Positions 52,901 through 58,900 of a stretch of DNA of 64,000 nt are shown piece after piece. Where the stretch lies: NCBI RefSeq assembly GCF_051903065.1, contig NZ_CP178438.1; one strand, given 5' to 3'. Every line of letters begins with the position of its first letter. Position 1 is the stretch's first letter. The stretch is from Escherichia coli (GTDB lineage Bacteria > Pseudomonadota > Gammaproteobacteria > Enterobacterales > Enterobacteriaceae). Made by a program: the position numbers.

Positions 52901-55900
52901 AGCCACGGTATAAACCGTGGCAAAATCCAACATAGCTAAAAATAATCAGGCGAGTGGTATGACTTAAATCTCTACGTCGCGGTTGCAATCTTTCGAGTAA
53001 ATATAGCTGAACGCTTCACCACGCCCTACGCCATAACCAGCCTGTAAAGAATAAGCGCCCATAAAGATGTAATCGCCTTTTTTCACCGGGATCCAGTTAT
53101 TGTCGAGGTTATAAACCCCCTGACCGGAAAGAATATAGGCACCGTGTTCCTGAACGTGTGTTTCGATATAACCATGGCTGGCACCTGGTGCAAAAGAGAG
53201 GATATGCATGTTCATATCAAAACCTAACTCTTTGGGCAGAAAATCCAGCAGGATCACATCATCCATACCTTCATAGTGAATGCGTTCCAGTTCGCTGGCA
53301 TTGCCAGAAACCAGCCACGGTGCATGGCCTTCTACCAGAACATAGCGGCGCTTGGTGATGCTGCCAACTTACTGATTTAGTGTATGATGGTGTTTTTGAG
53401 GTGCTCCAGTGGCTTCTGTTTCTATCAGCTGTCCCTCCTGTTCAGCTACTGACGGGGTGGTGCGTAACGGCAAAAGCACCGCCGGACATCAGCGCTATCT
53501 CTGCTCTCACTGCCGTAAAACATGGCAACTGCAGTTCACTTACACCGCTTCTCAACCCGGTACGCACCAGAAAATCATTGATATGGCCATGAATGGCGTT
53601 GGATGCCGGGCAACAGCCCGCATTATGGGCGTTGGCCTCAACACGATTTTACGTCACTTAAAAAACTCAGGCCGCAGTCGGTAACCTCGCGCATACAGCC
53701 GGGCAGTGACGTCATCGTCTGCGCGGAAATGGACGAACAGTGGGGCTATGTCGGGGCTAAATCGCGCCAGCGCTGGCTGTTTTACGCGTATGACAGGCTC
53801 CGGAAGACGGTTGTTGCGCACGTATTCGGTGAACGCACTATGGCGACGCTGGGGCGTCTTATGAGCCTGCTGTCACCCTTTGACGTGGTGATATGGATGA
53901 CGGATGGCTGGCCGCTGTATGAATCCCGCCTGAAGGGAAAGCTGCACGTAATCAGCAAGCGATATACGCAGCGAATTGAGCGGCATAACCTGAATCTGAG
54001 GCAGCACCTGGCACGGCTGGGACGGAAGTCGCTGTCGTTCTCAAAATCGGTGGAGCTGCATGACAAAGTCATCGGGCATTATCTGAACATAAAACACTAT
54101 CAATAAGTTGGAGTCATTACCGCGGCGCTTATATAAAAAGATTTGGCTGTCTTCGGCCTGGGCGTTAACAAACGTCATTAAGGAGCCTGGCGGGCAATAA
54201 AGATAGCCACCTTCGCTTAAGGCAAATGTTTTGCCTTCGGCTTTGGCAGTGATATTTCCAGAGATCACATACAGGAACGTTTCAATGCCTTCGCCACCGA
54301 AGCCCTGTTGGTTGCCACCGTTTTGATGCAGTGTGACCAGATAATCAACAAAAGAGGCACCCAGCTTTGGCGTGGAGAGGATTGTCGCGTCACAATTTTC
54401 AAAGCCCGGAATAATATTTTTTACCAGACCGTCTGGTGTTAACAGTGCGAAATTACCGTGTTTCACAATCGCACGGTTAGCCAGTAAATCATCGCGGTAA
54501 CCGGTGACGTTATTTAAATATCCCATTTATGACTCCTTATTTCTGCCAGGCAAGTTGATAAAGCATGAGTGCCAACGTTTTGACCCCTTCGGCAAGGTCG
54601 GTAATATTGGTGCGTTCCGCCGGGTTATGGCTGATCCCGTTGATGCTGGGGATAAAAATCATGCAGGTTGGTACGCGAGGCGCGAAAATTTGCGCGTCGT
54701 GCCCGGCACCACTGTGCATCACCCGGTAATTCAGTTTTTCACTTTCACACAATTCTGTCAGGGTGGCGACCAGGTCCTTATTCATCGGCACGGGTTCTTC
54801 GTCCATCCATAAATCGATATCAATACCAATGTCCATTTCATCGCAAATCGCCCGCATGTCGTTTTCTAACTGTTGGGTGAAATCACGCAGCACGGCGGCG
54901 TCGGTATGACGACAATCAATGGTGAATGTGGTTTTACCCGGCACCACATTCACCGTATTCGGGCGCGGCTCTACTTTCCCAAAGGTCAGAACCAGCGGAT
55001 CGCCCATCTTTTTCGCTTTTTCGATCGACTGATGGCAAATGCGACTGAAAGCGTAAACCGTATCACGACGATAACCCATCGGCGTGGTGCCTGCATGGTT
55101 TGATTCGCCGTTCAGCGTCACCGTATAGCGACGTTGCCCGACAATTGCATTCACCACGCCAATTGATTGCCCATTACTTTCCAGCACACAGCCCTGTTCG
55201 ATATGCAGTTCGACAAAGGCTTTAATATCCTGACGCGGAGTTAGCGGGGCGTCCGGCAGAGTAAATCCGCAAGCCTTCATCGCATCGACAAAACTATTTC
55301 CTTTGGCATCACAGATATTCCGCACGTCGTCAGGATTCGCCAGCCCAAAGATATTTTTGCTGCCCCAGAAAACATACGGGAAGCGGCTGCCTTCTTCTTC
55401 CGCCATCGCCACCACTTCAACCGTACGTAACGGCGCGCCGTATTGCGTTTTCAACCAGTCAATTGCCAGCCACGCCGCCAGCGCGCCGAATTGCCCGTCG
55501 AGGTTACCGCCGTTAACCACGGTATCGATATGCGAACCGCTCAGAACCACTTCCTGTGGATATTCGGTGCCACTCAGGCGACCGTATAAATTCCCCACTT
55601 CATCGAAACGTGTTTCCAGCCCACTTGCGGCCATTCTTTTTTTAAATTGCTGCTGGGTTTCCAGCCATTCCGGCGAATAAAGTAAACGGGTCATCCCACC
55701 CGTTGGGTCTGCGCCAAAAGAGGAAAGCCAGGGCAGCGTTTCTTCTATGGCTTGACGAAAATGTGTAATCATAAGAAAGTCCTGTCTCAATAATTATTGC
55801 GCAAAGGGATTTTTCGTTTCGTATGACGTGTTATAAAGCGCGTCGGAAATTAAATACTGGTAAATATCATCAACAATTTCGATGCCTTCGACGGCGGCTT

Positions 55901-58900
55901 TGCGTTGTTTAATATCCTGATCCTGTCCGGGATAATAAACCTGATTAAAACCGGGCGCGGGGGTAATGGCATTTAATTCGCGCATGGTCTGGCTAAGATG
56001 TTGACGGAATAATTCGCTGGAGGAGAAAAAGTTCGGGTTAATAACTACATGTAATTGCCCCAAATTACGCCCGGCGTGTAAATCGTCATACATCGAACTC
56101 ACCTGTCGCCCGAACGGTAAGCCGAGTAAGACGCCTGAGAGAACGTCAATCATCATCATCAGGCCATACCCTTTCGGCCCGGCTGCGGGGAGCAGAGCAT
56201 GTACCGCGAACGGATCGGTTGTTGGTGCACCGTTTTTATCGACCGCCCAGGTATCCGGGATAGACATATTACGCGAGCGGGCGTCGAGCACTTTTCCCCA
56301 TGCCTGTACGGTAGTCGCCATATCAAAGGTAAGGATCTCGTCGCCTTCTCCCGGCGCGGCAAAGGCCAGTGGGTTAGTACCGTAGTAAATTTCCGCGCCG
56401 CCAAACGGCACCACCATTGGATCGGACTGGCACATCGAAATGCCAATTAATCCGGCGCGGGCTGCCCGCTGCACAAAATAAGAGATTGCGCCGCTGTGAC
56501 CCATCCGGCTGATACCGACCACCGCAACGCCATTTTGCTGGGCGGTTTTGATGGCATGTTCCATACCCATTTTCGCCGCGACCTGTCCGGCGGCATTGTC
56601 GGCATGTAAAATTGCCGAGCACGGCCCGGTTTCCTCAAGACGAAACTCCGGTTCGCGGTTGGTGCCGCCTTTTGAAATGCGTTCCGCGTAGTATTCCACG
56701 CGCACCGCGCCATGAGAGTGGATCCCTCTGGCATCGGCGTAAACCAATACTTCAGCCACGGTTGCAGCGTGCTCACGTTTTAACCCAGCCTGGCAGAGTT
56801 TATTCTCAATTAGCTGGTGGAGTGTTTCCCGACTGATTTTCATCTGTCTTCCTTTTTAACGACGGTGTGAAGCATGACTGCAATTAACATACAGGGAAAA
56901 TATCTGGATTATGTGATCCAGACAGGCAAAAAAATATAGTTAGAATTTATTTGATAATCCGCTCGCTTTTAACCTGGTTTTTAAAACAACCACGCTTATT
57001 AAAAAATAACACGTAATAGCATGGCGGTTATTTGAATTCTTTTGTTAATAATCCCTGTGTGATATTCATCACCTTATTTACCCGTTGTCATCGATACCGT
57101 AATCGCCACATTAACACTGCTCGTGCAATTGCCATGGGTGCAATTTTTAAGGAGTTGTTATGATCCACGCCTTTATTAAAAAAGGGTGTTTTCAGGATTC
57201 GGTCAGTTTAATGATTATTTCACGAAAACTCAGCGAATCAGAAAATGTTGATGATGTTTCCGTAATGATGGGTACGCCCGCCAGGTAATGACTCCAACTT
57301 ATTGATAGTGTTTTATGTTCAGATAATGCCCGATGACTTTGTCATGCAGCTCCACCGATTTTGAGAACGACAGCGACTTCCGTCCCAGCCGTGCCAGGTG
57401 CTGCCTCAGATTCAGGTTATGCCGCTCAATTCGCTGCGTATATCGCTTGCTGATTACGTGCAGCTTTCCCTTCAGGCGGGATTCATACAGCGGCCAGCCA
57501 TCCGTCATCCATATCACCACGTCAAAGGGTGACAGCAGGCTCATAAGACGCCCCAGCGTCGCCATAGTGCGTTCACCGAATACGTGCGCAACAACCGTCT
57601 TCCGGAGCCTGTCATACGCGTAAAACAGCCAGCGCTGGCGCGATTTAGCCCCGACATAGCCCCACTGTTCGTCCATTTCCGCGCAGACGATGACGTCACT
57701 GCCCGGCTGTATGCGCGAGGTTACCGACTGCGGCCTGAGTTTTTTAAGTGACGTAAAATCGTGTTGAGGCCAACGCCCATAATGCGGGCTGTTGCCCGGC
57801 ATCCAACGCCATTCATGGCCATATCAATGATTTTCTGGTGCGTACCGGGTTGAGAAGCGGTGTAAGTGAACTGCAGTTGCCATGTTTTACGGCAGTGAGA
57901 GCAGAGATAGCGCTGATGTCCGGCGGTGCTTTTGCCGTTACGCACCACCCCGTCAGTAGCTGAACAGGAGGGACAGCTGATAGAAACAGAAGCCACTGGA
58001 GCACCTCAAAAACACCATCATACACTAAATCAGTAAGTTGGCAGCATCACCCGCCCGCCAATAAAGCGTTATTAGATACCACAGGTTTCTGGCATGACGA
58101 TTTTAATAACGCCACGCCGAACGATATTTGCGTGGCAATTCGTAGCGAAGCGGCGGATGCGGGGATCGCGCAGGCGATTATGCAGCAGCTTGAAGAGGCG
58201 CTAAAACAACTGGCGCAGGGGTCAGGCAGCAGCCAGGCGTTGACGCAGGTGCGTCGCTGGGACAGTGCCTGTCAGAAATTACCCGATGTCAATCTGGCGC
58301 TGATTTCAGTGGCTGGCGAGTATGCGGCGGAGCTGGCGAATCAGGCGCTGGATCGCAACCTCAACGTGATGATGTTCTCCGATAACGTCACGCTGGAAGA
58401 TGAAATCCAACTTAAAACCCGCGCGCGGGAAAAAGGCTTGCTGGTGATGGGGCCGGACTGCGGTACGTCGATGATTGCCGGCACGCCGCTGGCTTTTGCT
58501 AACGTGATGCCGGAAGGCAACATTGGCGTCATTGGCGCTTCCGGTACCGGGATTCAGGAGCTGTGTTCGCAGATTGCGCTGGCAGGGGAGGGAATTACTC
58601 ACGCGATTGGCCTTGGCGGCCGCGACCTCAGCCGTGAAGTGGGCGGCATCAGTGCGCTGACGGCGCTGGAGATGCTCAGTGCAGACGAGAAAAGCGAAGT
58701 GCTGGCATTTGTTTCAAAACCACCTGCCGAAGCGGTGCTTCTGAAAATTGTTAATGCCATGAAAGCAACCGGCAAACCGACGGTGGCGCTGTTTTTAGGT
58801 TATACCCCGGCGGTGGCCCGCGACGAGAATGTCTGGTTTGCCTCCTCGCTGGATGAGGCCGCACGCCTGGCTTGCCTGCTTTCACGCGTTACGGCGCGAC

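Follow-up and report, generated by a model that had tools for sequence, protein, structure and literature searches.

The allE–fdrA region and its two IS1 copies

The window, the 64-kb stretch of Escherichia coli DNA analysed here, carries two copies of the insertion sequence IS1 in opposite orientations, one within allE and the other within fdrA, and the features of this region are as follows.

52964-53353, minus strand: allE 3′ fragment, codons 133-261 plus the stop codon, parted from its promoter and 5′ part
53345-53353 and 54122-54130: target duplication of IS1 copy 1, GCGGCGCTT
53354-54121, plus strand: IS1 copy 1 (IS1A type), 768 bp, with IRL at the left
53409-53684: insA in IS1 copy 1, an ORF of 91 aa
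53603-54106: insB′ frame in IS1 copy 1, 167 aa, overlapping insA
53660-53666: A6C frameshift motif (AAAAAAC) in IS1 copy 1
54122-54526, minus strand: allE 5′ fragment, codons 1-135
54537-55772, minus strand: allC, allantoate deiminase/amidohydrolase, intact, 411 aa
55794-56843, minus strand: allD, ureidoglycolate dehydrogenase, intact, 349 aa
56844-57159: divergent allD-fdrA intergenic region, 316 bp, wholly within the bracketed segment
57160-57283, plus strand: fdrA 5′ fragment, the first 124 nt, giving 41 codons, followed inside IS1 by Arg and a stop
57275-57283 and 58052-58060: target duplication of IS1 copy 2, CGCCCGCCA
57284-58051, minus strand: IS1 copy 2, with IRR at the left and IRL at the right, its transposase genes pointing inward to allD
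58052-59604, plus strand: fdrA 3′ remainder, residues 40-555, without a start codon or promoter of its own
59614-60873, plus strand: ylbE, intact ORF, a YlbE family protein in relatives
60884-61699, plus strand: ylbF, intact ORF, oxamate carbamoyltransferase subunit AllH family in relatives
61696-62589, plus strand: ybcF, intact ORF, carbamate kinase in relatives

A repeat search of positions 50000-62000 returned one inverted repeat, with arms at 53354-54121 and 57284-58051 of 768 nt each and 100% complementary, a spacer of 3162 nt and a whole bracketed unit of 4698 bp; no second long inverted repeat was found by repeat search within the 64-kb window, and in a scripted comparison copy 2 was the exact reverse complement of copy 1. 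The perfect 768-nt repeat is not a product of chance; its arms are a known insertion sequence. Each copy is flanked by an exact 9-bp target duplication with no match at the tenth base pair, as determined by script, in agreement with the 8-9 bp expected for IS1 (PMC5009759). The preliminary description of this DNA, which had reported two identical inverted copies, each with its own matching duplication, around a 3.2-kb interior made up of the allE 5′ part, allC, allD and the fdrA 5′ end, is thus borne out, with the presumed allD/fdrA promoter region to be added to the contents of the 3162-bp interior. Neither a difference between the copies nor a mismatch in the duplications, either of which it had named as a sign against its account, was found.

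Each copy is complete, and the pair has an intact IRL at either outer end. The length of 768 bp and the imperfect terminal inverted repeats of about 23 bp (GGTGATGCTGCCAACTTACTGAT versus GGTAATGACTCCAACTTATTGAT, identical at 18 of 23 positions) are those of the IS1 family, and insA, the insB′ frame and the A6C motif are all intact. The two-frame organization, with insA and insB′ linked by a -1 frameshift at A6C, is accompanied by transposase homology, as NCBIfam NF033558 (IS1 family transposase) matches insA with 91 bits over profile positions 1-81 and insB′ with 146 bits over positions 75-199, and RefSeq labels the identical sequence in strain 23CRST027 an IS1A family transposase with programmed frameshift. 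With the K-12 MG1655 IS1A copy at 19796-20563 the window's IS1 shares the 768-bp length, the terminal inverted repeats, the insA/insB′ frames, the A6C motif and 9-bp duplications, and 767 of 768 bases are identical; the single difference lies at position 444 (T>G, AGT>AGG), which replaces Ser by Arg in InsB. Because this 444G variant is shared by further E. coli, among them the unrelated strain DLI.6n, the identity of the two copies is not diagnostic.

The allD-allC-allE transcription unit ends with allE, which copy 1 interrupts behind codon 135 of its 261; AllE is truncated at residue 135, and the operon is indeed severed from its last gene, as had been proposed. The 5′ fragment runs into IS1 and forms a 161-aa ORF (54041-54526), which scores 124 bits against NCBIfam TIGR03214 ((S)-ureidoglycine aminohydrolase), short of the cut-off of 200, and covers only positions 2-123 of the 249 in that profile; the 3′ fragment is annotated by RefSeq as "missing N-terminus" in the identical 23CRST027 sequence. 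Copy 2 sits in codon 42 of fdrA and truncates FdrA at residue 41 of 555; in relatives the 5′ fragment bears the annotation of a partial "hypothetical protein missing C-terminus", and the 3′ remainder matches NCBIfam NF004760 (acyl-CoA synthetase FdrA) over profile positions 40-555 of 555 with 946 bits. In-silico removal of the IS1 and one duplication restores a 261-aa AllE in one case (259 of 262 aligned positions equal to the reference, stop included) and a 555-aa fdrA ORF in the other, and both restored products are about 98-99% identical to, and colinear with, other E. coli proteins.

The two genes between the copies are undamaged: AllC is identical to its reference at 405 of 412 aligned positions, its only stop being the terminal one, and AllD at 346 of 350 (stop included in both counts), and annotation in relatives agrees for each. 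From the gene arrangement, the promoters would lie in the allD-fdrA intergenic region, and allD and allC would both have retained their promoter region. A promoter and terminator scan of positions 56700-58400 gave counts, including those of promoter-like hexamers, no higher than in shuffled sequence.

Distribution and origin of the IS1 pair

Among the 5,426 complete genomes compared, exact flank-plus-IS1 junctions were found in only two, the near-identical RefSeq strains 23CRST027 and 23CRST031 from Ecuador, which show 8 mismatches to the window over 64 kb and carry both insertions at the same base positions and in the same uninverted order. Their IS1 copies differ from those of the window by single-base gaps only, at which PGAP calls frameshifts, and both strains carry later IS903B insertions, one of them in the last codons of allC, which fits relaxed selection on the allantoin cluster. 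An IS1-rich background had been suspected from the closeness of the two copies, and these chromosomes do contain 37 IS1-containing places each, against a median of 11 per genome, a density at which chance alone would give about 1.06 pairs no more than 3.9 kb apart.

In other lineages IS1 has disrupted the same cluster independently. IS1 lies in allD in EC9; XJW9B277 has an IS1B together with an allB-to-glxK deletion; 13P484A has an IS1B in allE, 12 bp from the window's allE site; and DLI.6n has an IS1A in fdrA, 11 bp from the window's fdrA site, with the whole cluster deleted. All four belong to unrelated lineages and carry single insertions or an insertion plus a deletion, whereas the pair is confined to the window and the 23CRST clone. 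IS1 has a regional preference for sites adjoining AT-rich DNA, with which these sites, 11-12 bp from both of the window's sites, are in accord. In all, an IS1 lies in or next to this 5.8-kb stretch in about 47 of the 5,426 genomes (0.87%). Roughly 1% would be expected if a 5-Mb genome has a median of about 10 IS1 places, so that no enrichment shows at the cluster scale; the expectation is rough and ignores shared ancestry.

Based on these findings, we propose, with a probability of about 90%, that the pair arose by two separate simple insertions of one IS1A-type element, in opposite orientations with the IRL ends outward and each with its own 9-bp duplication; no evidence against this was found. 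IS1 would have entered allE and codon 42 of fdrA in separate events, each creating its own duplication, and once the first insertion had disabled the pathway, later insertions in the cluster would probably have been neutral; the pair would since have been inherited vertically within one E. coli clone. The second copy may have come by a short-range hop from the first or as an unrelated insertion in a genome with some 37 IS1 places, the two being about equally likely. Local hopping of IS1A is documented, 21 of 233 new insertions having landed within 5 kb of an existing copy where 2.6 were expected (PMC5009759), and the closeness of the copies is therefore also explained by it, besides IS1 richness. 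None of the 5,426 genomes carries just one of the two exact insertions, the near-misses being independent insertions at other positions, and either of the two may have come first.

IS1 is able to transpose replicatively, and intramolecular replicative transposition of a single IS1 could have made the second inverted copy and inverted the interior in one step, its expected product being inverted copies a few kb apart, as seen here; such an event, however, splits the duplications so that each IS keeps one copy of each, whereas both copies here have a matched 9-bp pair, and it predicts an inverted interior, whereas this one is colinear with E. coli genomes lacking the IS. An intramolecular replicative origin, to which we give practically no credence, is refuted by the matched duplications together with the reading frames that excision restores. 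No more credible is an assembly artefact behind the second copy or the perfect identity of the two. Misassembly is classically associated with identical repeats, and polishing can make copies uniform, but both insertions recur at the same base positions in two complete genomes that were assembled independently, and a misassembly does not yield matched target duplications and restorable frames.

Possible inversion and transposition of the bracketed segment

The preliminary description had further regarded the pair as a poised substrate for inversion or for composite transposition. As to structural potential this stands: RecA could use the pair, a passive substrate, to invert the 3.2-kb interior, and the two outer IRL ends could in principle move the 4.7-kb unit by transposition; as to inversion or mobilisation having happened, no sign appeared, since all three genomes show the parental arrangement and no plasmid copy was found. 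The matched duplications at each IS1 show that no net inversion has taken place; flips in even number, like gene conversion, would leave no trace. With both bordering genes disrupted already, a flip would have no genetic effect, and orientation would change nothing further because the promoter region and allD-allC move together. Orientation was judged by full-length comparison with complete genomes, which are consensus assemblies in which low-level inversion isomers of a culture are invisible. A short-junction test for the inverted isomer was tried on the window and dropped: both inner junctions consist of the IRR end and are identical before and after inversion, and because they do not change, the isomers can be told apart only by sequence spanning the whole 768-bp IS1. 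The RR1 genome paper deals with the e14 P-segment and not with IS1 inversions.

Frequent flipping, with mixed cultures of which the assembly shows the majority form, is a reading that we consider quite unlikely. It gains from the fact that RecA acts well on inverted repeats of this kind, perfect over 768 bp and 3.2 kb apart, from an IS-IS recombination rate of about 4.5e-5 per genome per generation with a bias to close copies, between which it is most frequent (PMC5009759), and from the IS1-mediated inversions that became fixed in the long-term evolution experiment (PMC4173774). Yet at the measured rates flipped cells should be no more than a small minority, no gene is altered in either orientation, which leaves neither form open to selective enrichment, and the parental order is present in all three independent genomes of the clone (the window, 23CRST027 and 23CRST031), so that, of the two orientations that an invertible segment would show among isolates, the window and the two junction-bearing genomes have only one. 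Neither a dedicated recombinase nor an orientation-dependent phenotype, the marks of a programmed switch, was found; the genes in or next to the segment are only IS1 transposase, allC, allD and gene fragments, with no dedicated site-specific recombinase among them. The IS1-mediated inversion of 1.49 Mb in population Ara-1 of the long-term evolution experiment (PMC4173774) likewise involved identical inverted IS1 copies on one chromosome, but the segment in the window is small (3.2 kb), no inversion of it has been fixed, and a flip would be without gene effect. Less probable still is that the 4.7-kb unit, from IS1 and the allE part through allC and allD to the fdrA part and the second IS1, is an active composite transposon that has entered or left this site. 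The segment does lie between two complete IS1 copies whose transposase frames are intact, and the IRL-IRL activity of their intact outer ends is putative; inverted IS1 pairs are known to form the transposon Tn1681, which So, Heffron and McCarthy reportedly described in 1979 as having its IS1 copies in inverted orientation. Against this, the outer flanks differ (GCGGCGCTT versus CGCCCGCCA), each matching the inner flank of its own IS, where one duplication would surround a unit that had moved as a whole; the interior joins exactly onto the outer halves of the broken allE and fdrA; and outside the native locus of a single clone the unit was not found. On plasmids it is absent: the interior has matches in 8 plasmid records, in every one of which allE and fdrA are full-length, these records being mostly Mb-sized (mislabelled chromosomes) or carrying large chromosomal blocks, as in pEcFELIX533.1. 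Absence elsewhere argues against past movement, not against future movement.

Tn1681 appears as an IS1 transposon in the reference list of PMC3153297. Like this heat-stable enterotoxin transposon, and like class I composites such as Tn9, the window's unit consists of two full IS1 copies around a few kb of non-IS DNA, and the inverted orientation of the copies is common to Tn1681 and the window. However, Tn1681 is defined by its movement as a unit, whereas in the window the outer duplications of the pair differ, the cargo is native DNA that has stayed in place, and the collections searched contain no other location of the unit, which is a potential transposon only.

Meaning for the allantoin pathway

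The gene fdrA is the first of fdrA-ylbE-ylbF-ybcF, which are genes of the same pathway as allE, and therefore both insertions damage one pathway. Polarity from the broken fdrA probably silences ylbE-ylbF-ybcF, the oxamate carbamoyltransferase and carbamate kinase branch. The loss of AllE may be partly bypassed, as ureidoglycine is chemically unstable. In this clone allantoin can probably not serve as a source of nitrogen or energy under anaerobic conditions.

A broader reading would be that loss of allantoin catabolism is repeatedly selected in gut or clinical E. coli lineages, with the allE and fdrA sites as IS1 micro-hotspots and the cluster as a convergent rather than a random target, or, in a weaker version, that allD-allC is a nascent mobile unit; we consider this very unlikely. 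The hotspot idea draws on the independent insertions within 11-12 bp in unrelated strains.

In conclusion, the two simple insertions proposed here are an ordinary gene disruption that public genomes already contain in annotated form, and their importance beyond strain bookkeeping is small, although the two clone-specific IS1 junctions could serve as PCR markers. The locus is a textbook case of insertion sequence expansion eroding a dispensable pathway stepwise, the window showing two IS1 insertions and its relatives adding an IS903B in allC.

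Identity and orientation of the IS1 pair

By the repeat search, the window has one long inverted repeat and no other; its arms (53354-54121 and 57284-58051, 768 nt each) are 100% complementary and lie 3162 nt apart. These arms are two IS1 copies, exact reverse complements of each other in a script check, with both IRL ends pointing outward and both transposase genes inward.

Features of the allE-fdrA region
53345-53353 and 54122-54130, target duplication of copy 1, GCGGCGCTT on both sides (end reading and script)
53354-54121, plus strand, IS1 copy 1, in allE
54537-55772, allC, intact, between the IS1 copies
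55794-56843, allD, intact, between the IS1 copies
allD-fdrA intergenic region, complete, 316 bp, between the IS1 copies
57275-57283 and 58052-58060, target duplication of copy 2, CGCCCGCCA on both sides (end reading and script)
57284-58051, minus strand, IS1 copy 2, in fdrA

Both direct repeats are exactly 9 bp by script, with no extension to 10. The preliminary description had placed an inverted IS1 pair here, and the repeat search, the reading of the ends and the script agree with its coordinates and account; the script also found the copies identical and each duplication matched, the two points on which that account depended.

Judged from its sequence, the element is an ordinary, apparently intact IS1 of the IS1A type. 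Its two ends, compared over 23 bases, agree at 18, as is usual for IS1 inverted repeats. The frames insA (91 aa) and insB' (167 aa) share an AAAAAAC motif where they overlap (53660, script), and both match the IS1 transposase model of NCBIfam, at profile positions 1-81 and 75-199. The K-12 MG1655 IS1A copy differs at only 1 of 768 bases; this change, T>G at position 444, turns an AGT codon (Ser) of InsB into AGG (Arg).

Disruption of the allantoin pathway

In-silico excision of each IS1 with one copy of its own duplication restores allE (786 nt, 261 aa) and fdrA (555 aa), and the restored proteins are ~98-99% identical to those of another E. coli. allE is broken after codon 135, and its 5' fragment, continued into IS1, encodes a 161-aa product that matches the first half only of the ureidoglycine aminohydrolase model, with a score below the model cut-off. 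The break in fdrA lies after nt 124, the remainder covering FdrA model profile positions 40-555, and ylbE, ylbF and ybcF (in RefSeq a YlbE family protein, an oxamate carbamoyltransferase subunit AllH family protein and a carbamate kinase) are intact 3' of the broken gene.

Allantoin is converted to allantoate by AllB, to ureidoglycine by AllC and to ureidoglycolate by AllE; ureidoglycolate then yields either glyoxylate (AllA) or oxalurate (AllD), and oxalurate is split into oxamate and carbamoyl phosphate, from which ATP is gained. Therefore, both insertions strike a single pathway, one at a step common to its branches and the other at the head of the branch that yields energy. We infer polarity on ylbE-ylbF-ybcF and a growth phenotype.

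Origin and distribution of the insertions

Each copy came by simple insertion, because both still have a matched duplication of their own and the segment between them is colinear with that of genomes without these insertions. One-step intramolecular replicative transposition is excluded as the source of the pair, since that process would place the two members of each duplication at different IS1 copies and turn the interior round, neither of which fits the window; arrival of the bracketed segment as a composite unit is likewise excluded, as it would leave one duplication common to the outer flanks, whereas these differ. The matched duplications also make sound the earlier argument against a net inversion between the IS1 copies so far, with the caveat that they would look the same after gene conversion or after inversions in even number.

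The chromosomes of 23CRST027 and 23CRST031, two RefSeq genomes of the same clone (human faeces, Ecuador), differ from the window by 8 mismatches over 64 kb and carry both insertions at identical positions and likewise uninverted, so that RefSeq genomes already contain the pair with its annotation. They also hold two IS903B insertions absent from the window (window positions ~27695-27706 and ~54554-54563); the latter costs allC its final few codons and is a third IS strike on the allantoin pathway. Queries of outer flank plus whole IS1, which parental and inverted isomers would both match, found the exact junctions in 2 of 5,426 complete genomes, namely these two, and therefore no inverted isomer in that collection. 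A search of plasmid records found no IS1-bracketed unit. One 128.8-kb record labelled a non-mobilizable plasmid, pEcFELIX533.1 (NZ_CP137697.1, 60679-75822), holds a chromosomal block from allB to purE adjoining IS1B, which may be due to faulty assembly or labelling, or else to excision or capture mediated by IS1; several further 'plasmid' matches are Mb-sized and evidently chromosomes.

In each of the relatives' chromosomes IS1 occurs at 37 places, where the median genome has 11, which bears out the IS1-rich background proposed earlier. For 37 copies placed randomly on 4.94 Mb, ~1.06 pairs within 3.9 kb are expected by chance, while IS1A hops locally in mutation-accumulation data (21 of 233 new insertions <=5 kb from an existing copy vs 2.6 expected; PMC5009759). 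On this rough comparison the odds between a local hop and chance closeness are about even, and the data do not separate the two routes because the same IS1 variant occurs in the unrelated strain DLI.6n and no genome with just one of the two insertions was found.

The allantoin cluster as a whole is no IS1 hotspot, because ~47 of the 5,426 genomes have IS1 within or beside this stretch, about what typical IS1 loads predict (roughly 1%). AT-rich runs adjoin both target sites, in agreement with the IS1 preference reported in PMC5009759. Independent insertions occur nearby: the unrelated strain 13P484A has an IS1B in allE (L006 6043-6810), 12 bp from the copy 1 site, with duplication TACCGGAAC, and DLI.6n has an identical IS1A in fdrA (L007 5501-6268), 11 bp from the copy 2 site, joined to sequence downstream of rhsD by a deletion that takes out the whole allantoin cluster. 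The glxK-allE intergenic region (52823-52957) has Rfam matches to ES036 and STnc480, repeated REP-type elements, which probably explain why the query with the flank on that side gave at least 40 pieces, the other junction query giving 37 places.

Elsewhere in the window, an intact 6925-aa ORF (1335-22112) made of roughly 300-nt repeats is annotated in a near-identical genome as the BapA-related giant adhesin SiiEA; a frameshift near 23.5 kb divides the neighbouring gene for a type I secretion ABC permease/ATPase into two ORFs (22116-23873 and 23519-24277), so that this adhesin may be without an exporter. A second toxin-antitoxin locus of the dinQ/agrB type seems to lie between ybbP and mnmH (38959-40000), where DLI.6n has rhsD: this interval contains an AgrB-like antisense RNA match (39685-39773) and a gene that a relative's annotation calls type I toxin DinQ, along with one ES036 element and two naRNA4 elements. 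Inverted repeats of 87 nt (30411-30497 and 39050-39238) fall on naRNA4/REP-type elements.

Potential for rearrangement

Tn1681 is an enterotoxin transposon with inverted IS1 copies at its flanks, and so offers a precedent for transposition of an inverted-IS1 unit such as this 4.7-kb segment. The two outer IRL ends could conceivably move the segment; no sign of past transposition of the unit was found.

Recombination is possible between two perfect 768-bp inverted repeats that are 3.2 kb from each other. In E. coli, IS copies recombine with one another at ~4.5e-5 per genome per generation, with close copies favoured (PMC5009759), and IS1-mediated inversions were fixed in experimental populations (PMC4173774). 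An inversion here would be genetically silent, swapping only which broken gene half adjoins which IS1, because allD, allC and their promoter region would move together, and selection has no reason to favour either orientation. The inverted form was seen in 0 of 3 genomes of the clone (the window, 23CRST027 and 23CRST031). At both inner junctions the IS1 end is IRR, and an inversion leaves these junctions unchanged; therefore, isomers are detectable only by reads or amplicons spanning the whole IS1.

In conclusion, the finding is real and the preliminary interpretation is supported: this is an ordinary case of genes broken by IS1 insertion, in an E. coli clone rich in IS1, and the arrangement of the pair is a stable, inherited marker of that one clone.
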